DNA from: a virus
IMG/VR virus record: IMGVR_UViG_3300012662_000005
Coordinates: 1-34,879 of that record
Direction: 5' to 3' (one strand)
DNA length: 34,879 nt
The translations under genes and the position numbers were made by a program. Shown piece after piece: positions 5,409 to 26,266 of this stretch. A model generated the notes under the pieces. The model searched no databases and was not told the origin of the DNA. It worked only from the letters and a program-made list of their open reading frames with translations. Position 1 is the stretch's first letter. Every line of letters starts with the position of its first letter.

Positions 5409-8400
5409 AATTTCTTACGGCCGCCACCCTTTTGATGAATTTCCCACCGAATTGACCGCCAAAGCCGAAACCCTTGGCGATTTGGTTCATGCTTGCGATA
5501 AAAATATCAAGCATGCGCTAGTTTTGGTTGGCGATGATTGCTTTAAGTATCCGCAATGCGCAGACGTCCCCGCTGATTGCCAAGAATGCCGCGTTTTGGC
5601 TGTGCCAGCGGGCAATAAAAAGATTTGGCGCAATATATGGCAGGGTGCGCTGGCGATTGCAGCGGCTGCGACCGCCCCTATTTGGGCCCCGTTTGCAACG
5701 GTTGTTGCAACCGCGCTGTATGCCTATGGTGCATTTAAGGTTTTGCAAGGCAGCATTCAACTGGCATATTATAAACCGCTGGGGCAGCAGGGCGCATATC
5801 AGGGGGGGTATTCCATCACTGGCGGCAGCAATTCGCAGGCGCAGGGCAACCCGATGCCGTTTATTTTGGGTAAATTCCGCGTTTATCCAAGCGTTGTGGG
5901 CAATTATTACACGACCCTTACAAACAATACTGGGCATGGGAAACAATTCGCCACGGCGGCGTTTTGCTTGGGGCAAAGCAACCTGAAAATCCAGAACATC
6001 AGAATCGGCAGCAACATTCTGTCTTACAATGAATCGGGCAACTACGGCAGCGTCACGATTGACGGCGCATTTGATGCGGCATGCGAACTGACAAACGGCA
6101 CGACCAGCACGATGTATAACGTCAAAATGTATGAACAGAATATCGGTGCAGAATGCGAACAGCAGACGATTCAATACGGGGAGAAATACAAAGCCCGCAT
6201 TGACTTTTTGAATGCGCAAAATGCCGCTTTGGAAAAACAGATAAAAGACCTTGATTTTTTAATTGCCGCGGCAGTCATGAATCATCATAATGCGCTGGCA
6301 GACAAATACAGAAAGCAGAAAGCCGACCTGCAAGCGCAGATTGCCGCCAACAATGCCGAAATTGCGGATTTGGAAAAAAAGCAGGACGAGGATGGAATCG
6401 TTGGAAACTACAAGAATACGCAGACAACCGCAGCAAACGCCGATGCTTTCACCGTGATTTTTGGTTTCCAAGGGCTGGGCCGCTATAATGACGAAAACAA
6501 AAAGAAAGAGGCAAGCCGCAACGTCTATATTATTTACCGCCCCGCTGAATCTGGCAAAGCATGGACGGTTGCATTGCACCGCGTATTTTCGGAGGCGCAG
6601 CCAGATAAAGCCCTGACGTATTACCAAACCGTCAATTTATCGGGCGAGGAAAAATCAGAAAATCCAAGCGGCAAATGGGAGGTCGCGGTTATCCCTATTG
6701 ATTCCGTCAGTAGCGAGGGCAATAAGGTCAACAAATTATACTGGCAGTCCCTGCAAACGCGCGTATCTGATGCAGTAATCCGCGTTCGCGAATTGCCAGA
6801 ATTGTCGCTGATGACCCTGCGCATTCAAGCCGATGCGAATACGCAAGGCAACCTGCAACAAATCAGCGCAGAATGCCAAAGCATCTGTCCAATTTGGAAC
6901 GGGGTTGATTGGAATACAAGCGAGCCAACCAGCAACCCTGCCGCGTTGTTCCGGTTTGTTTGCAGCAAGTTCTTCGAAAACGGATTTGACGAAAATTCAC
7001 TGGACAATGACGCAATCACCGAATTGTATGATTGGTGCTTGACCAATGATTATGAATGCAACGCAGCGATTGATTCGCAAGAACCCCTGATTGATATTTT
7101 GAATAAAATCCTGCAATGTGCGCAGGCGAAAGTGGTCATCAAAGGCGGCAAATTGAGCATTTGGCATGATACGGCGCAAGATAACCCCGTGGCATTACTC
7201 ACCCCGAAAAATTCAAGCGGATTTGAGGCGACAAAAGCCCTGAACAATAAAGTCAATGCGGTGCGGATTTCTTGGCACGATCCAGATGCGGACTACAAAG
7301 AAACGACAAGCGAGGTTTATTTGCATGGCGAATCAGCATCAGCCGATGACAATATTCAGGACGTGGAAATGTTCGGGCTGACCAATCATGACCAAGTATT
7401 CAGATTGGGGCGGTATCTGATTGCTTGCGTGCGCCTGCGCCCCGAAACATACAAACTGAAAGTTGGCATTGAACATTACAATTTGCCATTTGGCGCGCGC
7501 GTTTTGGTTGCATCTGATGTTCTGGCGGTATCAGATGCCTGCGGGCGCACAATCGGCACAGGAACGGACACGCTGGGCAAATATTGCGTTATTGACGAAA
7601 TAATCGCTGCGCAAACAAGCGTTGAAAATCCAAACACAAACCCTTACTATATGCGGGTGCAAAATGTGAATACGGGCGCACTGGAATTGCGCGAAATTTA
7701 CCGCCCCGCCGAGGCGACCAATCGCATCAGATTCAAAGATGAAAGTGCAGAAATACCGCCAATCGGGTCAATCTATGCGGTGGGCGAATTGGAGACGCTG
7801 GATTGCATTATTATTGGTAAAGAAATCGCAGACGATGACACTTGCCAACTGACGCTTGCCGCATACGATGAAAACATCTATAATGCGGTCAATGCTGAAA
7901 TTCCGCCTTACAATCCAAAAATTACGCAAGGGGAAAGCACCGCGGGCGGCATTACGTTTATCACTGACCCTGCTGTATCTGGCGAAAACGATTTTGTGAA
8001 TCAAAAGAATTTTGGGGGCGTATTCTTTGACTTTGGAATCTATTCAGTGCTTGGCGATGAATTTAAGAATCAGGGCACGCTTGGATCATTTGCGCAGCAG
8101 AAAGTAATCGGCACATTGCAGCCGCGCTGGAACGTCGACCGCGAAATTACCATCAACTGGTTGCATTTGACGTCCGCTCAATCGCTGGCATTCTATACTG
8201 ATAATCTGCTGTATAACAATCACACATTGTCATTTGCGCTGGCTAACGTATCGGGCGTGGGGCTGATTTGCAGATACGATGATACCGAAAACAATAACCG
8301 TTTGTATTTTGAAAAATTGGCTAACGGCAAAATGCATTTTGACTTTGACGACGTTGTGCATGAATTTGACTATGACTGGGATGGCGAACATCTGATAACA

Positions 8401-11626: not shown

Positions 11627-12406
11627 ATGAAAGTTCAATTTACAGACCGTCAATATCAGTTGATTCAGACGTTGCCTGCGGCAGAACGGGGTGCAGTTCT
11701 TGCCGCTTTTTTTGATTTCAAATTTAATCAAGAAAATCAAGTTGCACTTGAAAAACTTGAAAAAAATCAACAAGCGGTTTTTCTGAAAATGCTTGCCAGA
11801 AACTGGGGCGGGGCGCGCGAAAAAAGCGGGCGCAAGCCGCGGAAATCTGGGAAAGTGCAAAAAAAGAACATTGCCGAAAATGAAAATCAAGATAATCAAG
11901 AAAATCAAGTTGCACTTGAAAAACTTGAAAAAAATCAGTCGCGCGTAGTGGATAATAATATATTAAATATAAATAATATAAATATATCCCCAGAAAAGAA
12001 AATAGAAAAACATACCCTTACGGGTATGCAAAAAGAAAAAGAAAAAAATCCGCGCACAAAATGGGATTTGGCGATGGCTGAATGGAATCGGATTGCGGGG
12101 CTTTATCGGCGGCCAAAAGTCCGCGCAATCACCCCGCAGATGCAAACCGCTATTCTTGCCAGATGCGCTGATAACAAAATCCGCATTGGGGAATTTTTTG
12201 CGATTTGCGAAAAAGCCCTGATGCGCGACCCTGCCTTGCGGAACGGCACGGACAAATGGGGCGGCGCAGATTTGATTTATTTCACGCGCCCTGCAAATTT
12301 CACGCGCGCATTGCAGGCCGCAGATAATCCAGACATGAAATTCAGCCGCGGGGACGAAACAGCCGCGGTGCTGGCGGATTTTATCAAAGGGGGCGACAAT
12401 GAGTAA
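11627..12406 (+). CDS. putative replication organiser/initiator (lambda O-like layout; DUF6291-like N-terminus)
   Basis: ATG 11627 is preceded by GGGGGAACAA; the track start 11456 lies in promoter/operator DNA. N-terminus FTDRQYQLIQTLPAAERGAVLAAFFDF. The low-complexity linker is encoded by iteron-like and AT-rich DNA. Function is inferred. Confidence 0.55.
   Translation: MKVQFTDRQYQLIQTLPAAERGAVLAAFFDFKFNQENQVALEKLEKNQQAVFLKMLARNWGGAREKSGRKPRKSGKVQKKNIAENENQDNQENQVALEKLEKNQSRVVDNNILNINNINISPEKKIEKHTLTGMQKEKEKNPRTKWDLAMAEWNRIAGLYRRPKVRAITPQMQTAILARCADNKIRIGEFFAICEKALMRDPALRNGTDKWGGADLIYFTRPANFTRALQAADNPDMKFSRGDETAAVLADFIKGGDNE
11726..11769 (+). repeat. 44-bp perfect direct repeat, copy 1 (iteron cluster)
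   Basis: aatcaagaaaatcaagttgcacttgaaaaacttgaaaaaaatca. Contains AATCAAG x2 and the palindrome CAAGTTGCACTTG. Confidence 0.95.
11894..11937 (+). repeat. 44-bp perfect direct repeat, copy 2 (iteron cluster)
   Basis: Identical to 11726..11769 and offset by 168 bp (in frame). An extra AATCAAG lies at 11885. Confidence 0.95.
11952..11987. other. 36-nt A/T-only tract (candidate DNA unwinding element)
   Basis: ataataatatattaaatataaataatataaatatat lies immediately after the second iteron cluster and inside the CDS. Confidence 0.5.
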
Positions 12407-13091
12407 ATTTATTCAGGGTGATTGTCTGCTGGCGATGCAGGATTTGCCAGACAAAAGCGTTGATTTATTGCTGACCGACCCGCCTTATCTATTCGCCAAG
12501 GGCGGTATGAAAAGCAAACTGAACGCAGGCGTGCGCGCTGCCGACAGCAAAGTTATCACGGAAATGTCGGATTTTGGCGAATCGGAAATCAACGCGTTTT
12601 TGGATTTAGCAAGCGCAAAATTAAAGCGCGCCAACATGTTCATATTCGCAAGCCGCCTGCAAGTGCCGATGTATCTGAATTGGGCAATAAAGCACCGCAA
12701 AAATTACGATATTTTGGTCTGGGACAAATGCAACGAGGGCATAATCAATTACGGGTTTTATAACCCCGCCGTGGAATATATCATCAGGATTTACCAAGAC
12801 GGGTTGTTCAAGGTTGACGATTTGGCGGCATACCAGAAAGTCCAGCGCATTCGCCCCCCCCGCAAAAAGGTTCATCCAGCGCAAAAGCCCGTGGAATTGC
12901 TGCAACGCCTGATAAAGGTATCAACGCGCGCAGGGGACACAATTCTTGATTGCTTTGCGGGGGCTGGATCAACCGCCGTTGCTGCCGAATCGCTGGGGCG
13001 TCAATTTATTGCGATTGAACGCGACCCAAAATTCGCAGAAATCGCGCAAAAGCGGATTGCTGACGCGCGCACATGGGGCGCAGATGAATAA
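12399..13091 (+). CDS. DNA methyltransferase, beta-class N6A/N4C (MTase 1)
   Basis: DPPY motif (LLLTDPPYLF) at the N-terminus, then HPAQKP and the SAM-binding motif ILDCFAGAGST toward the C-terminus. SD GGGGGCGACA. Confidence 0.85.
   Translation: MSKFIQGDCLLAMQDLPDKSVDLLLTDPPYLFAKGGMKSKLNAGVRAADSKVITEMSDFGESEINAFLDLASAKLKRANMFIFASRLQVPMYLNWAIKHRKNYDILVWDKCNEGIINYGFYNPAVEYIIRIYQDGLFKVDDLAAYQKVQRIRPPRKKVHPAQKPVELLQRLIKVSTRAGDTILDCFAGAGSTAVAAESLGRQFIAIERDPKFAEIAQKRIADARTWGADE
12854..12861. repeat. C8 homopolymer inside MTase 1
   Basis: cgc ccc ccc cgc encoding RPPR, upstream of the SAM-binding motif. Confidence 0.95.
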
Positions 13092-14946: not shown

Positions 14947-15116
14947 TTTCAGACGACCAACTGATGGTAAAGGTTGAATTTCTTGTCCCCGCATCGGTAA
15001 TGTCCGATGATGCGGTGCGCGATGTGCTGTATGACCAAATTGGGGCTTTCAACCTTTACGCGTTAAAAATTAAAAAAACAACCGTTAAACAAGAAATGCA
15101 AGCATGGAGGAAATGA
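14943..15116 (+). CDS. hypothetical small protein (57 aa; below the track cutoff)
   Basis: ATG 14943 after GGGGGCTATAA. ATGA overlap upstream; stop overlaps the start of the HD gene. Confidence 0.5.
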   Translation: MISDDQLMVKVEFLVPASVMSDDAVRDVLYDQIGAFNLYALKIKKTTVKQEMQAWRK

Positions 15117-15751
15117 TGGGCGTATTTGATTATGTTCGCAGGGAACAGCCAGCGGCGCAGCCGCAGGCGCAACAGAATACCGAATCGGGGGCTGATGTAT
15201 TCAGCCGCGAATTGGTGCTGATAGACAATGCCGATTTGCGGGAGGCGGTTCAGTGTGCGCTGGAACATGCGCCGTCTTATTTTTGGGAAATGCCAGCGTC
15301 CAGCACGGGCAAATATCACCCCGCCTATACATTGGGCGCGGGCGGCCTTGTGCGCCATACCAAGGCGGCGGTGCGGATTGCTGACGCGCTGTTGCGCCTT
15401 GAAATGTATGCGCCCCTTGCTGCGCGCAAAGACGAAATAATCGCCGCCCTGATTCTGCATGATAGCGTTAAAAAGGGTGCATCTGGCGGGCAATACACAA
15501 CGATTGAACACCCGCTGGCAGCCGCGGATCATTTCCAGCGCATCGCGCAGGGGCTGGAATACAGGGGCGACATTGAATTTATTTGCGGGCTAATCCGCGC
15601 GCACATGGGGCAATGGAACAAAGATTTTGACGGGAACGATGTCCTGCCAAAACCGATTACGCCGCATCAACAATTTGTTCATTTGTGCGATTATTTGGCA
15701 TCGCGAAAATTTATCACGATAACGGAGGATTCAGGCGCACCCCTGAAATAA
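15113..15751 (+). CDS. HD-domain metal-dependent phosphohydrolase
   Basis: GGAGG SD then ATG 15113/15116. Motifs SSTGKYHP, GGLVRHT, ALILHDSVKK and CDYLASR are typical of phage HD hydrolases. Confidence 0.7.
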   Translation: MMGVFDYVRREQPAAQPQAQQNTESGADVFSRELVLIDNADLREAVQCALEHAPSYFWEMPASSTGKYHPAYTLGAGGLVRHTKAAVRIADALLRLEMYAPLAARKDEIIAALILHDSVKKGASGGQYTTIEHPLAAADHFQRIAQGLEYRGDIEFICGLIRAHMGQWNKDFDGNDVLPKPITPHQQFVHLCDYLASRKFITITEDSGAPLK

Positions 15752-18701: not shown

Positions 18702-19367
18702 ATGAAAGCAATAACTGATAACGCGCGGGAAATCTGGGCCGCCTTGCAGAATTTGCAAGACGAGGTCGCGCCCGTTGCAAAAGACGCGAACAACCCACAT
18801 TTTGCCAGCAAATATGCAACGCTGGAAAAGGTTATAGAATCGCTGCGCGAACCTTGCAAGAAAAGCAAGGTTGCGTATCAGCAATGGGCTGATGGTCTGG
18901 AAATCCACACAAGGGTATTCATGACAACCGATCCAACTGATTACATTGAACAGGTTTTGGAAATGGTGCTTGATGCCAATCCGCAGCGCATGGGGTCAGC
19001 GATAACATATTACCGCCGCTATTCGCTGGGATTGATATTCAACCTGCGATTTGCTGATGATGATGGCAATGCCGCCGCTGGATTGCCAGAAAGGGCGCAA
19101 AATCGCCCGCAGGTGCGCGATAATGCCCCGCGCCAAGCAACCAGCGCGCCAAAGCAACAAAATGCGCCTGCGCGCGTAAAAAAGGTGATGGGCGAATTTA
19201 ATTTCAAGCAGATGATCCAAGAATTGAAATCATGCAAGCGCAGCGCGGACATGAATCCGATTGCGAAAAAATGGGCAAACGCCTTTGATATGACGCCCGC
19301 CCAGAAAGACGCAGCGACAGATGCATACAAGCACCGCTTTAATTATTTGAAACAAATAAACCGATAA
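18702..19367 (+). CDS. erf: ERF-family single-strand annealing recombinase
   Basis: 221 aa. NPHFASKYATLEKV and GSAITYYRRYSLGLIFNLRFADDDGN match the P22 Erf core (GATSSYARKYCLNGLFGIDD). Confidence 0.8.
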   Translation: MKAITDNAREIWAALQNLQDEVAPVAKDANNPHFASKYATLEKVIESLREPCKKSKVAYQQWADGLEIHTRVFMTTDPTDYIEQVLEMVLDANPQRMGSAITYYRRYSLGLIFNLRFADDDGNAAAGLPERAQNRPQVRDNAPRQATSAPKQQNAPARVKKVMGEFNFKQMIQELKSCKRSADMNPIAKKWANAFDMTPAQKDAATDAYKHRFNYLKQINR

Positions 19368-20375: not shown

Positions 20376-21026
20376 ATGGAACAATTTATAAATAAAATCA
20401 TAAACGCGGATTGTATGGACATCTTGCGCCAGTTGCCCGACAAAAGCATTGATTTGGTTTTGACCGACCCGCCCTATGGAATAGATTACGGCGGCCAATT
20501 AAAGGGCAAAGGCGATGGGCGGGGGGGGGCAGACAAGTTCGGCTGGCGCGGCTGGGAAACGCCCGAATGGGACAAAGAACGCCCCTGTAAAGCAATTTTT
20601 GACGAAATCTTGCGGGTATCCAAAAATCAGATTATCTGGGGTGGAAATTATTTCGCTGACATGTTGCCCGCAAGCAAATGTTGGTTGGTCTGGGACAAAA
20701 TGCAACGCAAATTTACCGCTGCGGACGGCGAATTGGCATGGACGTCATTTGATAAATCGGTGCGGATTTTTGATTATTCACGCGCCGCCGCCCTGCAAGA
20801 CGGTAAAATTCACCCGACACAAAAGCCGTTGAAATTGATAGAATGGTGTCTATTAAATAGCAAAGAAAACGACCTAATTCTTGATTGTTTCAGCGGTTCG
20901 GGGACAACGGCGGTTGCATGCCACAATCTGCACAGGCGGTTTATCTGTGTGGAAAAAGACCCGAAATATTGGCAGCAAAGTTGTGAACGGTTGGAACAGG
21001 CAAAACGGCAAACGGTGCTTTTTTGA
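20376..21026 (+). CDS. DNA methyltransferase, beta-class N6A/N4C (MTase 2)
   Basis: LVLTDPPYGIDY, HPTQKP and ILDCFSGSGTT. Paralogous to MTase 1, including DNA-level similarity around the DPPY motif. Confidence 0.85.
   Translation: MEQFINKIINADCMDILRQLPDKSIDLVLTDPPYGIDYGGQLKGKGDGRGGADKFGWRGWETPEWDKERPCKAIFDEILRVSKNQIIWGGNYFADMLPASKCWLVWDKMQRKFTAADGELAWTSFDKSVRIFDYSRAAALQDGKIHPTQKPLKLIEWCLLNSKENDLILDCFSGSGTTAVACHNLHRRFICVEKDPKYWQQSCERLEQAKRQTVLF
20521..20529. repeat. G9 homopolymer inside MTase 2
   Basis: ggg cgg ggg ggg gca encoding GRGGA, just after the DPPY motif. Confidence 0.95.
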
Positions 21027-21730: not shown

Positions 21731-21759
21731 AATAATACACATCTCCTATTGTTGTGGCA

Positions 21760-21796
21760 GCCCCGTCCGACTTTATCTCTCTCGCGGGGCTTTTTT
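21760..21796 (+). terminator. rho-independent terminator
   Basis: gccccg-N19-cggggc followed by TTTTTT. Confidence 0.65.
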
Positions 21797-21865
21797 GTGA
21801 CTTATTCAAAAAAACGAATTGTCTTAAAAGTATGCAATTTGCGCCGAGCAAATGGCTATTTTTGC

Positions 21866-21895
21866 TTGACAGCCCAGCGCAGACGGTGGTATTTT
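21866..21895 (+). promoter_or_regulatory. promoter C (TTGACA-N18-TATTTT with an upstream TGg extended -10)
   Basis: Read directly from the sequence, ~215 nt upstream of the ParB-MTase start. Confidence 0.55.
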
Positions 21896-21917
21896 CAGAT
21901 TGAAAGGGAAAACAGGT

Positions 21918-22112
21918 TTGCGCAGCAATCAGGAAATCTTGGCAATATTGCAAAAATCAAGGCAGTTGTCGGCATTCGCGAAATTTTGCGGAATGTCGCG
22001 CGATGGGGTAAAAAGGCGATTAAATAGGCAATCGCCCGCTGGCAAATGCCTACTTTTTTGGCAATACCTGCTTTTTTTGGACAACCGCGCGGAAATAAAG
22101 GGGATAAAATGA
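21918..22112 (+). CDS. candidate TTG-initiated small HTH protein (64 aa; 70 aa from TTG 21900)
   Basis: AAAGGGA SD-like element then TTG. QEILAILQKSRQLSAFAKFCGMSRDGVKRRLN looks like a helix-turn-helix. The stop overlaps ATG 22109 as ATGA. No ATG start, and the C-terminal half is odd. Confidence 0.3.
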   Translation: MRSNQEILAILQKSRQLSAFAKFCGMSRDGVKRRLNRQSPAGKCLLFWQYLLFLDNRAEIKGIK

Positions 22113-23461
22113 GTGAAATTGATATAAAGTTTGACAAGCGCAATTACCGCCAGCATGGCGCGCGCAACAAAAAACTGATAAACAAATCGTTGCGTGATTG
22201 CGGTGCGGCTCGTTCAATCGTCATTGATGCCGATAATTCCATAATTGCGGGCAATGGCGTTTATGCCGAGTGGACAAATCTGCATGGCGACCGCCCGCCA
22301 ATTCGCGTTATTGAAACCGATGGGCGCGAAATGGTCGTCGTAAAGCGCACAGATATTGCCGCTGATTCAAAAGAACGGCAGCAGTTGGCAGTCATGGACA
22401 ACAGCACATCGGATTTATCAGAATTTGATTACGAATTGATGCAGCAGGATATGGACGATGCGACCTTGGAGGATTACGGTATTGATATGAATCCAGCCGT
22501 TGATAAATCCCCTGTGAAAGAATTGCCGCGGGGCAATCTGGCGGATGATTTCCTGATAATGCCCGCCAGCATCCTGAATACACGCGATGCAAAGTGGCAG
22601 GCCAGAAAGCGCGCTTGGAATGATTTGATTGGGGACGAGGGCGAAAGCCGCACTGGCACGTTAGGTTTTTCTGAATTGATTACGTCCAAATACGGCAAGC
22701 GCGGTTTGTCAAATGTCAGTATTTTGGATGCAACATTGGCCGAAATAATCAACAAATGGTTTCTGCCAACGGAAATTCCAGCAGGTGAAAAATTAAAAAC
22801 CTGCGACCCATTTGCGGGCGATTCGGTCTTTGGATATGTGAGTGGTTATCTGGGGGCAGAATTTACAGGGATTGAATTGCGGCAAGAGCAAGCGGATTTG
22901 AATAATATGCGCGGCGAACCTGTCGGGGCGCATTATATCTGCGATGATGGACAGAATATAGCGCAGCACCTGCCGAAAGAATCGCAAGATTTGGTCTTTT
23001 CTTGCCCGCCATACTTTGATTTGGAAAAATATTCAGATGATCCCAAGGACGCAAGCAATCAGAAAGATTACGAACAGTTCATGGAAATATTATCAAATGC
23101 GCTATCGGGGGCTTGCCGCTGCTTAAAAAATAATCGCTTTGCAGTAATTGTTATGAGTAATGTGCGCAATCATACCAACGGCGGCTATTACGATATTTGC
23201 GGCGACATTTGCCGCATCATGCAGGGCGCAGGCATGATATTATACAACGAATTTATTCTTGTAAATTCCATTGGCACGGGCGCAATGCGCACAAGGGGCA
23301 ACATGAAAACCCGAAAGAATGTTCGCTGCCACCAAGAAGTGCTTGTGTTTTATAAAGGCGAAAATCCGCAGCGCGATATTCCAAAAGAATTTGGCAAGAT
23401 TGCGCTGGCAGAAATAAATGAAAGCGAGGGGGGGGCAGATGCAGGCCAAGATGTGGAATAA
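22109..23461 (+). CDS. ParB-like nuclease domain fused to a DNA methyltransferase (MTase 3)
   Basis: 450 aa from ATG 22109 (AAGGGGA SD). The N-terminus NKKLINKSLRDCGAARSIVIDADNSIIAGNG is ParB/Srx-like. The C-terminus has motif I CDPFAGDSVFG followed by motif IV FSCPPYFDLEKYSDD. Confidence 0.85.
   Translation: MSEIDIKFDKRNYRQHGARNKKLINKSLRDCGAARSIVIDADNSIIAGNGVYAEWTNLHGDRPPIRVIETDGREMVVVKRTDIAADSKERQQLAVMDNSTSDLSEFDYELMQQDMDDATLEDYGIDMNPAVDKSPVKELPRGNLADDFLIMPASILNTRDAKWQARKRAWNDLIGDEGESRTGTLGFSELITSKYGKRGLSNVSILDATLAEIINKWFLPTEIPAGEKLKTCDPFAGDSVFGYVSGYLGAEFTGIELRQEQADLNNMRGEPVGAHYICDDGQNIAQHLPKESQDLVFSCPPYFDLEKYSDDPKDASNQKDYEQFMEILSNALSGACRCLKNNRFAVIVMSNVRNHTNGGYYDICGDICRIMQGAGMILYNEFILVNSIGTGAMRTRGNMKTRKNVRCHQEVLVFYKGENPQRDIPKEFGKIALAEINESEGGADAGQDVE
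23428..23435. repeat. G8 homopolymer at the MTase 3 / AdoMetDC junction (also the SD of the next gene)
   Basis: gag ggg ggg gca, 26 nt before the MTase stop and 3 nt before ATG 23439. Confidence 0.95.
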
Positions 23462-23744
23462 AAGATTTTGGATTGAAATATCTGATGAAAGATTTCTGCG
23501 CTGGGAATACGAAAAGTTGCTGCGCGATGCAGGGTTTAAGATAATATCGCTGCAAGAGCAGCAATTCCAGCCCTATGGCTATACAGCACTGTTTTTGCTT
23601 GCTGAATCGCATTTTGCTATTCATACATTCCCAGAATGCGGAAAAGCATATTGCGAATTGTCAAGTTGTGTTAAAAAGTATTTCAATAGGTTTATTAAAT
23701 TGGCAAAAGAAAGAAATTTGGAGGGCTATGATGAAATTAAATAA
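23439..23744 (+). CDS. speD: S-adenosylmethionine decarboxylase proenzyme, class 1b (pyruvoyl-dependent)
   Basis: 101 aa. FQPYGYTALFLLAESHFAIHTFPECGKAYCELSSC aligns with B. subtilis/T. maritima F.P.GVSGVV.ISESHLTIH.PE.GY...D..TCG. E|S cleavage site, His and Cys are all present. Confidence 0.8.
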   Translation: MQAKMWNKRFWIEISDERFLRWEYEKLLRDAGFKIISLQEQQFQPYGYTALFLLAESHFAIHTFPECGKAYCELSSCVKKYFNRFIKLAKERNLEGYDEIK

Positions 23745-24021
23745 AATCAAAGGTTATATTGCGCCGACAGACGAACGGTTTCTGTGCGCAGAATTTGAAA
23801 ACATTATGCGGCTGGCATGCGGTAAAATCATTGCGGCTGACAAAAGCCGTTTATCGCCTTATGGCGCGCAGGTTGGCTATGTCTGCAAATCTGCATCGTT
23901 GCTTTTTGAATCGCATCCAGAGAACGGCGAAACTTACGTTTCGTTTGTTGCAACGAATAAATCGGCATTGCGGGCTTTCAGGCGGCTGGCGCGGCTGGCG
24001 AATCTGATGCCAGTTGCATAA
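23731..24021 (+). CDS. degenerate AdoMetDC-like paralogue
   Basis: 96 aa with a GGAGGG SD and a 14-nt overlap with the previous gene. LSPYGAQVGYVCKSASLLFESHPENGETYVSF keeps PYG and ESH..PE but lacks the xxIHT segment and the downstream Cys. Confidence 0.6.
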   Translation: MKLNKIKGYIAPTDERFLCAEFENIMRLACGKIIAADKSRLSPYGAQVGYVCKSASLLFESHPENGETYVSFVATNKSALRAFRRLARLANLMPVA

Positions 24022-24142
24022 AAAAATCGGGGGCGTTTTTGGTGTAAAAAATCGCGCTGAATTGCCCCTATTAAAAAAGGCGTGATGTGCGGGTTGGCGC
24101 AAGCGCGCGCCCGCAAACCGCCAAGAGTTCGGAGGTTGAATT

Positions 24143-24454
24143 TTGCTGCAAATTTCTGAAATTTATCGGGCATTGGAACGCCGCGGACGAATAACAGAGT
24201 TTAGCCGCGATTATATGCATTGCGACCCCCGCACACTTAAAAAGTGGTGCTGCAATCCGCGATATTTTGATTTGGTCAACGCGTGCTTTCAACGGTTCGC
24301 CGCTGATTATTTTGTGAAAGTAAAAAAGAAACGCAAGCCGACGGGTCGCCCGATTCAGAAAGGCAACCTTGGGGCAAGCCCCGCAATCCGCGCTATGATT
24401 CAAGATGTGATGTCGCGCGATGGCGATTTCTGGGGGGGTGGCAATGGCGATTAA
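24143..24454 (+). CDS. hypothetical protein upstream of terS (TTG start)
   Basis: 103 aa. GGAGG SD 7 nt before TTG 24143. Overlaps the terS start by 11 nt. Confidence 0.5.
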   Translation: MLQISEIYRALERRGRITEFSRDYMHCDPRTLKKWCCNPRYFDLVNACFQRFAADYFVKVKKKRKPTGRPIQKGNLGASPAIRAMIQDVMSRDGDFWGGGNGD

Positions 24455-24920
24455 ATGGAAAACATCAGCCGCCTATATCATAGCGTGCGCCACTGAATAT
24501 TATGAACAGAAACTAGATTTGCTGCGCGCTGGCAAATTGTCCCTGCCGATTTGGCAAGAAATGTGTCTGCTAAACAACATTGACACCCTTGCCAGTTATC
24601 AACTGGCGCGAACCGACAAACGCGTGCGTGCAATCGGGCTTGCAATCCATAATTTGCAAGAGGTCGTCCTGATGAAAATGCTGACCAGCGGGCGCGTGTC
24701 GCCGACTGGCATCGCGGTATTTTTGAAAGCGCAGCACGGCTGGCGCGAGGGCAACGAGGCAGACCAATTTGGCAACAATGCCAAGGCGCAGTCCGTAAAT
24801 GATTTCTTGTATAATGTGGGGCAGATGCTGCAAACGCCCGCCCCGACCCGCGTCAATCCATTTGATGCGGACAAGGCAACAGACCGCGCCAAATTGACGG
24901 CGCAAACAAACAAGGGCTGA
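24444..24920 (+). CDS. terS: terminase small subunit
   Basis: 158 aa from ATG 24444 (a G7 run upstream). GIAVFLKAQHGWREGNE matches the iF.LKn.fGW.d TerS signature. Directly upstream of terL. Confidence 0.65.
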   Translation: MAIKWKTSAAYIIACATEYYEQKLDLLRAGKLSLPIWQEMCLLNNIDTLASYQLARTDKRVRAIGLAIHNLQEVVLMKMLTSGRVSPTGIAVFLKAQHGWREGNEADQFGNNAKAQSVNDFLYNVGQMLQTPAPTRVNPFDADKATDRAKLTAQTNKG

Positions 24921-26266
24921 TGATGCAAAATATGTATTCCAATTTTAACGCGAAACAAGTGGAATATTTGCGGAAAGCGTGCGCCCCTGAATGCTGGCTT
25001 GCGTGCGCCGAGGGGGGAAAGCGTGCCAGCAAAAACTTATTGCAGATATTCGCGTGGTGCTTGTATCTGGAAAATTGCCCCGACCGCCTGCATGCAGCAG
25101 CCGCGCCGACAATATCAGCCGCGCAAATCAACATCTGGGACAGCAACGGATTTGGGATTGAAAACTTTTTCGCGGGGCGATGCCAGACAGGGGCATACAA
25201 AGAAAAGCCCTGCTTGCGCCTGCAAACGCGCACTGGCGAAAAGATTATACTTGCGCTGGGCGGTGCAAAGGCGGGGGACGAGAAACTGTTCCGCGGGTTT
25301 TCGTTTGGGTCTGTGATGATAACGGAAGCCCCGAAATGCACGCAACAATTCGTGAATGAACTGATTGACCGAACTATTGCCAGCCGACAACGCAAGGTTT
25401 TCATTGATTTGAACCCCGAGGCACCGCGCCACTGGATTTATTCGGAATTTCTGAACCGCCACGAAAAGAACCAGCGCAAAGACCCGCATTATGGGTATGT
25501 CTGGGAACATTTCACCCTATATGACAACACCAGTTTATCTGATGAACAGATTGCGCGCGTGATATCAACATACGATGCTGATTCCCTGTGGTTTTTGCGG
25601 GAGATTCTGGGTTTGCGGGCAAATGCCGAGGGCAGCATATTCAAGCAGGTGGCGGCGCGCCCTGACGCATTTATCAGCCACGCCCTGATGCCAGTGGAAA
25701 AGGCGAACTGTTTTAATCTGGGAATTGACTGGGGGGGCAATAATTCCAAGACAACCGCGGTGCTGTCTGGCATATTTAATAATTGGAAAGACGTCCAGAT
25801 TGTCGCCGCCATGCGCCTGAAAGACGAATCGCCGAATCTGGATATTGACGCAATCAATGAATACATCTATACGTTCCTGATGTTGATAAAGCGCGAATAC
25901 CCCGATATAAAAATCACCGCCATTTGGGCTGATAACGAGAATCAGATTGCGTTAAAATCCCTGCGGTCGTATCTGGCGCGCAAGGGCTACCCCGCAATCG
26001 TCCGCGGGTGCGAAAAAGCCCCGATTCTGGATCGCATCAAGATTAAAACAACGCTGCTGAATCGCGGACGGTATTCGTTCCTGATGCCGCTGGCGCAAAA
26101 TGCGCTGGATTCAACTTGTGAGCAACTATGGAATCCAAAGAAAGACGATGAACGTCTGGATGATGGCACTTGCGATATTGATACAGCGGACGCCGAGGAA
26201 TACAGTTGGACACCGTTCATGAAATATCTGCGCGCTGCGCTGGATTCTGCAACAACAAGGGCTTGA
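24920..26266 (+). CDS. terL: terminase large subunit
   Basis: 448 aa. Walker-A-like AEGGKRASKN, DLNPEAP, a nuclease-domain GIDWGGNNSKTTAV, IWADNENQ and a C-terminal acidic DTADAEEY. Start overlaps the terS stop. Confidence 0.85.
   Translation: MMQNMYSNFNAKQVEYLRKACAPECWLACAEGGKRASKNLLQIFAWCLYLENCPDRLHAAAAPTISAAQINIWDSNGFGIENFFAGRCQTGAYKEKPCLRLQTRTGEKIILALGGAKAGDEKLFRGFSFGSVMITEAPKCTQQFVNELIDRTIASRQRKVFIDLNPEAPRHWIYSEFLNRHEKNQRKDPHYGYVWEHFTLYDNTSLSDEQIARVISTYDADSLWFLREILGLRANAEGSIFKQVAARPDAFISHALMPVEKANCFNLGIDWGGNNSKTTAVLSGIFNNWKDVQIVAAMRLKDESPNLDIDAINEYIYTFLMLIKREYPDIKITAIWADNENQIALKSLRSYLARKGYPAIVRGCEKAPILDRIKIKTTLLNRGRYSFLMPLAQNALDSTCEQLWNPKKDDERLDDGTCDIDTADAEEYSWTPFMKYLRAALDSATTRA

Follow-up and report, generated by a model that had tools for sequence, protein, structure and literature searches.

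We analysed a viral DNA of 34,879 nucleotides (nt) (IMG/VR record IMGVR_UViG_3300012662_000005, positions 1 to 34,879; hereafter the window) and focused on the module at 21900..24021. There a small open reading frame (ORF A), a gene for a ParB-like domain fused to a methyltransferase core (gene B), a gene for an S-adenosylmethionine (SAM) decarboxylase (AdoMetDC; gene C) and a dead AdoMetDC paralogue (gene D) are tightly coupled on the + strand. We find that residues of the predicted cofactor pocket of B and its relatives change together with the presence or absence of a neighbouring decarboxylase gene. We propose, with a probability of roughly 0.6, that B and C form a two-enzyme cassette in which C would supply the cofactor of B, decarboxylated SAM (dcSAM). 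The covariation and the strict coupling of the two genes suggest a widespread, undescribed phage DNA modification that employs dcSAM in place of SAM. Our comparison covers approximately 200 related loci, which we drew from phage isolates, from IMG/VR and from GTDB genomes.

Identification of the decarboxylase gene and the methyltransferase-fold gene

Gene C (23439..23744, + strand) encodes a mini class 1b AdoMetDC proenzyme of 101 amino acids (aa). It matches PF02675 (E 4e-14, 53.3 bits vs a cut-off of 25) and, over its full length, the 96-residue phage family phrog_27309 (E 5.6e-34). The score against the NCBIfam equivalog TIGR03330 is 47.1 bits and thus under the cut-off of 75.65, which marks C as a family member and not as a curated equivalog. 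C aligns gap-free to the AdoMetDCs of T. maritima and A. aeolicus and carries the motif LLAE/SHFAIHTFPE...SSC (the slash marks the predicted cleavage point). Alignment to the T. maritima enzyme places the predicted self-cleavage and pyruvoyl site at Glu56-Ser57 (23604..23609, + strand), with Ser57 on S63, His62 (23622-23624, + strand) on H68 and Cys77 (23667-23669, + strand) on C83. PDB entry 1tmi is the non-processing S63A mutant of the T. maritima protein. The original prediction had described C as an intact AdoMetDC with a Glu-Ser core, and both the family match and the three catalytic positions bear this out. The closest cultured-phage relative is gp67 of Croceibacter phage P2559S (47% identity), a true AdoMetDC that restores spermidine in E. 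coli without speD (Li et al., PMC9992855). Other phage homologues of AdoMetDC are arginine or ornithine decarboxylases (PMC9992855, PMC10407285). By similarity to the P2559S enzyme, C would be expected to autoprocess and to use SAM as its substrate.

Gene B (22109..23461, + strand, 450 aa) consists of a ParB-like N-terminus (aa ~1-130) and a core of the amino-methyltransferase fold (aa ~140-420), with motif I preceding motif IV in the gamma-type order. Its start is ambiguous between 22109 and 22046 (471 aa), and gene callers chose 22046 for two relatives. B matches PF01555 (E 1.4e-8, 35.4 bits vs a cut-off of 26.7) over profile positions 2-110 only, that is, the motif IV half. It also matches the phage methyltransferase family phrog_498 (E 2.6e-88), and aa 5-125 match the ParB-like family phrog_620 (E 4e-11). 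The ParB-fused methyltransferase that had been predicted is supported by PF01555, phrog_498 and phrog_620, and the two motifs described below are present in the sequence; the Pfam family PF02195, however, did not match the ParB-like domain of B itself even at E up to 1. Many of the 2508 B homologues carry PF02195 together with PF01555.

The structure model of B (predicted local distance difference test score, pLDDT, of 81 overall and above 90 in the core) has a class I methyltransferase fold and comes closest in structure to TrmM, Trm11 and TTHA0409, all of them N-methyltransferases of nucleic acids. Motif IV (S-C-P-P-Y-F-D-L-E, 23000..23026, + strand; FSCPPY at aa 297-302) represents the putative counterpart of the catalytic loop of amino-methyltransferases. 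It reads C-P-P-Y, with Cys at the D/N/S position, is invariant in the family and aligns with TSPPY of TTHA0409 (2zie). Motif I (DPFAGDSVFG, aa 233-242, 22805..22834, + strand) forms the loop between strand 230-233 and helix 240-247 in the model. Here, F-A-G-D-S-V-F-G departs from the canonical FxGxG(S/T)T by other residues at the second Gly and at the Ser/Thr pair; where ordinary methyltransferases have GSGTT, Asp and Phe are introduced in B. Asp238 (22820-22822, + strand) is Gly and Phe241 (22829-22831, + strand) is Arg or Lys in other B-family members. Two further positions are Leu206 in motif X (VSILD; 22724..22726, + strand), which is Phe in nearly all relatives without an AdoMetDC neighbour, and Arg268 in the helix after strand beta-2 (22910..22912, + strand), which is specific to AdoMetDC-linked enzymes. 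The phage encodes three methyltransferase-fold enzymes, and the altered cofactor loop is found only in B. The other two, at window positions 12399-13091 and 20376-21026, are beta-class N6/N4 DNA methyltransferases with canonical TDPPY and FAGAGST or FSGSGTT motifs.

Pairing of B and C across phages

Using C, we retrieved 20 loci from IMG/VR, and in 19 of these the decarboxylase is directly preceded by a B homologue. In the exception (locus L022), the ORF at 5788-6216 is an in-frame fusion of a ParB-like N-terminus (IKLNDANPRYITD...) with two-thirds of a mini AdoMetDC, namely its C-terminal part, which reads QPQGYT...ESHFAIHTWPE...SSC. We considered this locus as a case of a decarboxylase without a methyltransferase and rejected it, since the locus is a deletion remnant of the cassette that lost the core of the methyltransferase along with the beginning of the decarboxylase. 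Among cultured phages, gp66 of P2559S (452 aa, with a methyltransferase domain and a core 44% identical to that of B) overlaps the decarboxylase gene, and Pseudomonas phage ZRG1 shows the order ParB-methyltransferase, AdoMetDC, DUF1441, terminase. B and C genes usually overlap, by 3 to ~80 nt. The partner decarboxylases belong to two sequence subtypes, mini and classical 1b, and all keep ESH..H[T]xPE..(S/T)C with conserved Ser, His and Cys. The gene neighbourhood survey that the original prediction had proposed thus confirms the adjacency of B and C (19/20 IMG/VR loci, P2559S and ZRG1) but leaves gene D outside the conserved arrangement.

B relatives are numerous, with more than 588 in IMG/VR, 309 stretches in GTDB genomes and 2508 protein clusters. 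SAM-type relatives precede terminase genes without a decarboxylase in Enterococcus, Listeria, Fusobacterium, Clostridium, mycobacterial and haloarchaeal viruses. In many phages these sisters of the SAM type stand at the corresponding place ahead of terS, and their annotation is DNA methylase. The cassette itself is also seen in genomes of the candidate phyla radiation (L156, L160 (Gracilibacteria)). L156 was left unscored because ORF calling with table 11 breaks its genes; its lineage presumably reads UGA as a sense codon.

Covariation of the cofactor pocket with the decarboxylase

Decarboxylase-linked B enzymes all read F-A-G-D-(S/T)-x-(F/I/M/L)-G in motif I (the D-hydrophobic class) and SAM-type relatives read F-x-G-G-x-x-(R/K)-G. 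We fetched 80 more viral loci by family alignment and scored each for motif class and for an AdoMetDC-like ORF. For the viral and isolate counts, B proteins were clustered at 70% identity. An AdoMetDC was found next door for all D-hydrophobic clusters (42/42), for none of the G-R clusters (0/11) and for none of the clusters with a Gly deletion or other variants (0/3). In case of the D-K clusters, one of six had such a neighbour, and this was a dead D-type protein. Taken together, the non-D-hydrophobic viral clusters had an AdoMetDC neighbour in 1/20 cases, that one being the dead D-type. As an independent sample, 80 GTDB loci, which represent prophages in many phyla, gave 45/48 for the D-hydrophobic class, 0/9 for D-K, 0/19 for G-R and 0/2 for other forms of motif I. 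A catalytically intact AdoMetDC was observed beside 0 of ~50 enzymes of the Gly and/or Arg/Lys type.

In a neighbour-joining tree, the G-R enzymes branch outside a large clade that was ancestrally D-hydrophobic and accompanied by a decarboxylase. Within this clade, at least four independent lineages lost the D-hydrophobic signature, and each of them is without a decarboxylase; the lineages concerned are L095, two Gly-deletion lineages, D-K group 1 and D-K group 2. An explanation of the link between motif I and the decarboxylase as a single inherited event was rejected based on these at least four separate reversions and on the GTDB set, which repeats the pattern.

An unbiased scan of alignment columns returned Arg268, Leu206, Phe241 and Tyr243 as the best discriminators. 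Arg268 is present in 70/73 decarboxylase-linked enzymes vs 0/33 others and is lost in each independent reversion. Position 206 is Leu in 72/73 decarboxylase-linked enzymes and Phe in 31/33 others, with the same distribution in the GTDB loci. The discriminating columns fall in motif X, motif I and the adjacent helix, which are the parts of the fold around the amino-acid end of SAM.

Natural exchange in sister phages

The sister phage L032 offers a natural swap. It is 93-99% identical to the window over the promoter, ORF A and the ParB domain, but only 47-63% identical over the methyltransferase core (~22540-23170). Gene C is cleanly absent, and identity is again at or above 90% from D onwards. 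The core of L032 belongs to the D-K class and carries Phe206 and Asp268. Two further relatives repeat the alternatives, with L039 showing the arrangement of the window and L040 that of L032. As L032 exchanges the core and lacks C between near-identical flanks, the methyltransferase core and gene C act as one exchangeable cassette.

These observations bear on a simpler view, namely that B and C have independent functions and share only their timing. B would then be an ordinary SAM-dependent protective DNA methyltransferase, and C would raise dcSAM for the spermidine synthase of the host, whose product spermidine would neutralise packaged DNA. The P2559S decarboxylase does support spermidine synthesis with E. 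coli SpeE, the genes lie directly before the terminase genes, speD genes without a methyltransferase are common in cyanophages, and D-hydrophobic enzymes without a decarboxylase exist. We nevertheless consider this explanation quite unlikely. In at least four independent lineages, the pocket residues 206, 238, 241 and 268 of B shift each time the decarboxylase is missing, and the methyltransferase core and C are exchanged together. Further, this type of decarboxylase is essentially never found without the methyltransferase, and the B and C genes overlap. SAM depletion and a polyamine boost for packaging, both put forward in the original prediction, may still play a part, but either of them alone leaves the covariation unexplained.

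A proposed dcSAM-dependent mechanism

In the mechanism we favour, C would self-process to a pyruvoyl-dependent SAM decarboxylase and produce dcSAM, and the cofactor pocket of B would be rebuilt to take dcSAM and not SAM. Two changes in this pocket would be central, namely an Asp placed in the glycine-rich loop and a Phe replacing the Arg or Lys expected to pair with the carboxylate of SAM. They would be accompanied by changes at Leu206 and Arg268. Held on its ParB-like DNA-binding domain, B would modify replicated phage DNA when expression of the late (packaging) genes begins. The most likely acceptor would be an exocyclic amino group, by analogy with enzymes of the (D/N/S)PPY type. The transferred group could be 3-aminopropyl, yielding a cationic hypermodified base, or methyl, in which case dcSAM would serve as a phage-private cofactor. 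dcSAM as the cofactor, DNA as the target and the nature of the transferred group are all three features that we infer.

The role assigned to the pocket residues has a precedent in polyamine synthesis. Spermidine synthase is related to the methyltransferases through its Rossmann fold. At the centre of its motif I glycine loop stands an invariant Asp that keeps out the SAM carboxyl and thus confers dcSAM specificity (Kozbial and Mushegian, PMC1282579). The substitutions D103I and V106T (positions i and i+3) together with Q79T convert a spermidine synthase into a SAM-using putrescine methyltransferase, and the Thr was modelled to hydrogen-bond the carboxylate in this mutant (PMC3725402). Asp238 and Phe241 of B are likewise found at i and i+3, and in the model helix A begins two residues after Asp238, much like the arrangement in GGGDGAMLREV of E. 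coli SpeE. The Arg or Lys at i+3 in relatives without a decarboxylase may be the natural partner of the carboxylate.

It had been predicted that the ParB-methyltransferase-fold enzyme uses dcSAM for an aminopropyl-type DNA modification. The use of dcSAM is in good agreement with the covariation, the several reversions and the cassette exchange, while the choice between aminopropyl and methyl cannot be read from the sequence. We slightly favour aminopropyl over methyl transfer. An aminopropyl group would result in a cationic base, which suits a gene heading the packaging operon; a methyl group taken from dcSAM would suit a drain on SAM combined with a private donor. The unchanged motif IV fits either outcome, because in the pair of spermidine synthase and putrescine methyltransferase changes in the pocket alone switch cofactor and transferred group, with no alteration of the acceptor site. 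In its most specific form the proposal is tentative, and we hold it well short of even odds: many tailed phages and prophages of Bacteroidota, Bacillota, Proteobacteria and other phyla would carry 3-aminopropyl on adenine or cytosine amino groups, installed after replication by means of dcSAM made by the partner enzyme.

The methyl alternative can be phrased as a sub-case of the dcSAM proposal in which C drains SAM to counter type I/III restriction-modification and bacteriophage exclusion (BREX) systems, and B takes its methyl group from dcSAM as a private cofactor. This alternative draws on the same covariation. An identical motif IV in SAM-type and dcSAM-type enzymes would also be the simplest expectation if the acceptor chemistry stays methylation. 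Degradation of SAM by phage enzymes is an established anti-restriction strategy, and the SAM lyase of phage T3 is said to work in this way. Still, we regard the sub-case as unlikely. The two canonical methyltransferases of the same phage would need SAM, we know of no natural methyltransferase that uses dcSAM, and the turnover of AdoMetDC may be too slow to empty the SAM pool. Moreover, the precedent of spermidine synthase and putrescine methyltransferase pairs the Asp pocket with aminopropyl and not with methyl transfer.

A further alternative concerns the acceptor. B may not be a nucleic-acid enzyme at all but a non-orthologous aminopropyltransferase that makes a polyamine together with C in a SpeD/SpeE-like pathway, or one that modifies a protein or small molecule. 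Clustered SpeD-SpeE pairs are found in one phage and two eukaryotic viruses (PMC9992855), the pocket of B resembles that of spermidine synthase at the Asp, and some B-family members are without a ParB domain (L101, 295 aa; L098, 307 aa). However, PF01555 membership and the xPPY loop are typical for enzymes acting on nucleobase or amide nitrogens, the nearest folds are tRNA and DNA N-methyltransferases, and most members are fused to a ParB-type DNA-binding domain. In addition, the SAM-type sisters in the same pre-terS position carry DNA methylase annotations, and B has neither profile similarity to spermidine synthases (no Pfam match to this family) nor their N-terminal beta domain. We therefore judge a non-nucleic-acid role of B to be most improbable.

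Several points weigh against the use of dcSAM by B to modify DNA. D-hydrophobic enzymes without a neighbouring decarboxylase do occur; L176 is a genuine case, to which L168 and perhaps L171 can be added. These would still be compatible with the use of host dcSAM. Gdel-F variants have no Asp, no basic residue and no decarboxylase, so that the rule of a basic residue binding the carboxylate is incomplete. Motif IV and its surroundings are the same in all classes, and the acceptor site gives no sign of a changed transferred group. The equivalence of Asp238 and Phe241 to the spermidine synthase residues is suggested by the motif and the register of the predicted secondary structure. A comparison of the B-family profile with E. 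coli SpeE by hhalign was uninformative (probability 0.4%), and a Foldseek search with the B model returned hundreds of Rossmann methyltransferases, among which a spermidine synthase with dcSAM at rank 45 is non-specific and was not used. The ParB-like domain of B is without the conserved Arg of GxxR, the family consensus G..R..A...LG reading AGNGVYAEW. DNA as the target of B is deduced from family membership, fold neighbours and the ParB fusion, and the proposal for the B family as a whole is built on sequence comparison.

Gene D, an AdoMetDC-fold protein without catalytic residues

Gene D (23731..24021, + strand, 96 aa) encodes an AdoMetDC-fold protein in which the catalytic residues are replaced. 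It matches C by BLASTP with 30% identity over 91 aa (E 1e-14, gap-free) and phrog_27309 with E 1.8e-5; no Pfam match was found. Its model (pLDDT 95.5) shows the AdoMetDC fold, with template modelling (TM) scores of 0.69-0.71 to 1vr7 and 2iii (0.71 to 2iii). Based on gap-free alignments, all catalytic positions are lost, with Glu-Ser changed to Ser-Ala, His to Glu and Cys to Thr. By these replacements, D is a predicted pseudoenzyme and not an AdoMetDC. The degenerate AdoMetDC paralogue that had been predicted is thus confirmed by the match to C, the fold and the loss of Ser, His and Cys.

We rejected the idea that D is merely a decayed duplicate of C, as its ratio of nonsynonymous to synonymous polymorphism (pN/pS) of 0.13-0.41 indicates purifying selection and D is kept in sister phages without C. 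The relatives found amount to four close copies and one 43% relative in total. A word-index search with D gave two matches, no relatives were found in IMG/VR, and tblastn against phages gave no match. An exhaustive scan of 1.84 billion representatives returned one further relative (43%); the other three matches were repetitive and unrelated. Judged by its distribution and sequence, D appears to be an accessory, non-catalytic protein restricted to one narrow phage lineage and outside the conserved unit of B and C. The original emphasis on tandem AdoMetDC genes was accordingly misplaced, the conserved unit being B with C, and D being lineage-limited and kept without C.

Dead AdoMetDC-fold partners are known from the trypanosomatid prozyme and the N-terminal domain of human spermine synthase. 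D likewise has the AdoMetDC fold without the catalytic residues, and both proteins are among its structural matches (3c6k, TM 0.64; 5tvm). D differs in that it persists in phages lacking C, and it is tied to B or C by adjacency alone.

Module layout, signals and flanking genes

The module follows the order of a conserved terminator and promoter, genes A-B-C-D and the terminase genes. A terminator-like hairpin (GCCCCG...CGGGGC with a U-run, ~21757..21797, + strand; fold -16.5 kcal/mol, z -2.2) was overlooked by a simple scan because its loop is long; it probably closes the operon upstream of the module. It is followed by a sigma-70-like promoter (TTGACA-18 nt-TG-TATTTT, 21866..21895, + strand) that matches the consensus at 10/12 positions and is assigned by consensus match only. 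The promoter had been predicted at this position, and its hexamers are identical in sister phage L033, in which the upstream hairpin and U-run are also kept.

ORF A (21900..22112, + strand) extends from TTG 21900 (70 aa) to the stop TGA at 22110-22112. The likelier start is TTG 21918 (64 aa), which is preceded by AAAGGGA. The protein is nearly identical in the relatives L033 and L039 and has no match in Pfam, PHROG or NCBIfam. It had been regarded as a small helix-turn-helix protein at the head of the module, and we rejected an assignment as a helix-turn-helix regulator for want of support from any of these three collections.

A Shine-Dalgarno sequence is found at every start of the four-gene module. 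The stop of ORF A overlaps the B start ATG at 22109 (ATGA, 22109..22112). The B stop at 23459-23461 lies beyond the C start ATG at 23439, which is preceded by GAGGGGGG, giving a 23-nt overlap. The C stop at 23742-23744 lies beyond the D start ATG at 23731 (or 23728), preceded by GGAGGG, giving a 14-nt overlap. All predicted coordinates and junctions agree with the sequence. D stops at 24019-24021 and the next ORF begins at 24143, leaving a gap of 121 nt. The module had been described as ending ~120 nt before terS; the distance holds, while the terS label is positional only.

This gap (24022..24142, + strand) is a structured intergenic spacer between the module and the ORFs preceding terL, with a minimum free energy of -49.3 kcal/mol (z -2.8). 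It contains strong GC-rich hairpins that could be regulatory or packaging-related. Two ORFs, 24143-24454 and 24420-24920, lie between the spacer and the large terminase gene (24920..26266, PF03237). They have no Pfam, PHROG or NCBIfam match and are 100% identical in sister L032. The second overlaps terL by ATGA and is a candidate small terminase by position only. In the upstream early/middle region of the window, we found an HD-domain protein (15104-15751; PF01966, E 6e-5) and an ERF-family recombinase (18702-19367; PF04404, E 8e-18). No tRNA genes were found in the window, and a near-identity DNA search against GenBank phages gave no match.

Other neighbours of the B family

B-family members that are not linked to a decarboxylase have neighbours of their own. 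A conserved ORF of 63-68 aa directly follows SAM-type B members (G-R, D-K and Gly-deletion) and is not seen after decarboxylase-linked ones. It is found at L025:4429-4620, L026:4439-4636, L034:1817-2017, L036:2813-3004 and L038:4377-4568, and also in L105, L107, L113 and L115. Its consensus is ...EAK..I.P.I.E.N.R..EIAKKY..KPK..S...F(L/M)R, it has no family match, and it may be an alternative small partner.

In cluster B mycobacteriophages, a G-R type ParB-methyltransferase (gp1) overlaps a PALP-family gene; the same is found in H67 (Pseudanabaena phage Pam4). In Mycobacterium phage Vincenzo, this neighbour is gp2 (L031:1406-2275), a pyridoxal phosphate-dependent gene of the PALP family annotated as 'carboxylate deaminase' (PF00291, E 2.5e-10). 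A possible target of a PALP-family partner is the amino-acid end, either of SAM or of a transferred group. A truncated SAM-synthetase-like gene follows a D-K type methyltransferase at L036:3056-3850 (264 aa), with PF00438 N-terminal and PF02773 C-terminal domains and an unmatched central domain, and a 41-aa remnant of a SAM-synthetase-like C-terminus is left at L038:4589-4714. By its family matches, the SAM-synthetase-like gene appears to be a third kind of SAM-related neighbour for the B family. In L085, also of the D-K type, a 386-aa ORF lies between the methyltransferase (5-1477) and a terS-like gene and starts 16 nt before the methyltransferase stop.

Relation to known systems and implications

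The closest parallel is found in Synechococcus phage S-B43, where CmoA makes carboxy-SAM for the adjacent methyltransferase homologue CmoX, resulting in DNA carboxymethylation, and one Arg sets the cofactor choice (PMC12783734). The CmoA-CmoX(-CmoY) system and the B-C cassette are alike in that a phage gene makes, or in our case would make, a SAM derivative for a neighbouring DNA-methyltransferase homologue, that few pocket residues decide on the cofactor and that ParB-domain proteins are often associated. They differ in chemistry and in standing: the CmoA-CmoX cofactor derives from prephenate and is used by a C5-cytosine methyltransferase, whereas here the cofactor would be dcSAM from a pyruvoyl decarboxylase, and its predicted user is an xPPY enzyme of the amino-methyltransferase fold. 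SpeD-SpeE pairs likewise place a decarboxylase gene beside a Rossmann-fold dcSAM transferase that has the motif I Asp and a hydrophobic residue three positions on. B, however, is outside the spermidine-synthase family, has the xPPY loop and the ParB-like fusion, and its expected acceptor is DNA and not putrescine.

ParB-methyltransferase fusions are frequent in phages and their role is given as unknown (PMC12704722). B, with its ParB-like N-terminus, has the architecture and family of the ParB-N6/N4 methyltransferase fusions of phages and plasmids (PF02195 with PF01555), and SAM-type relatives in Enterococcus, Listeria, Fusobacterium and mycobacterial phages have its pre-terminase position in common. 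The B subgroup differs in its rebuilt pocket and obligatory decarboxylase, and the published survey mentions no decarboxylase (PMC12704722). Cyanophage speD and the arginine/ornithine decarboxylase homologues belong to the same class 1b AdoMetDC family as C. They are stand-alone genes read as polyamine genes, whereas the mini type described here (85-110 aa, phrog_27309) is bound to a methyltransferase gene.

Parts of the system have been visible before. PHROGs already names the mini AdoMetDC family, and the adjacency of B and C is already found in GenBank in the cultured phages P2559S and ZRG1. Searching an incomplete library for literature on dcSAM or aminopropyl groups in phage DNA modification, we found no paper that links B and C or proposes a dcSAM-dependent modification of nucleic acids. 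The original prediction had named no described phage system that couples a ParB-methyltransferase to tandem AdoMetDC genes and was not aware of any; this holds for the literature we found, but the adjacency of B and C itself was already on record. The cassette would be of a known kind, namely a phage cassette whose methyltransferase homologue uses an altered SAM supplied by its neighbour, and there is a substantial chance that its chemistry is new.

If the proposal is correct, B would be the first known nucleic-acid-modifying enzyme with dcSAM as its cofactor, and the cassette would represent a methylation system with an orthogonal cofactor or else, with aminopropyl bases, a new hypermodification of DNA. 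Aminopropyl transfer would make B the first nucleic-acid aminopropyltransferase, and its product would form a new class of cationic hypermodified DNA. The cassette would further provide a natural example of how few pocket residues can retune cofactor choice within the SAM family, in parallel to spermidine synthase/putrescine methyltransferase and CmoX. As the cassette is common and present in the cultured phages P2559S and ZRG1, the prediction is directly testable. Consequences would be expected for restriction resistance, sequencing signals and phage engineering, and many non-cyanobacterial phage speD genes would have to be re-read as cofactor suppliers for DNA modification and not as polyamine auxiliaries.

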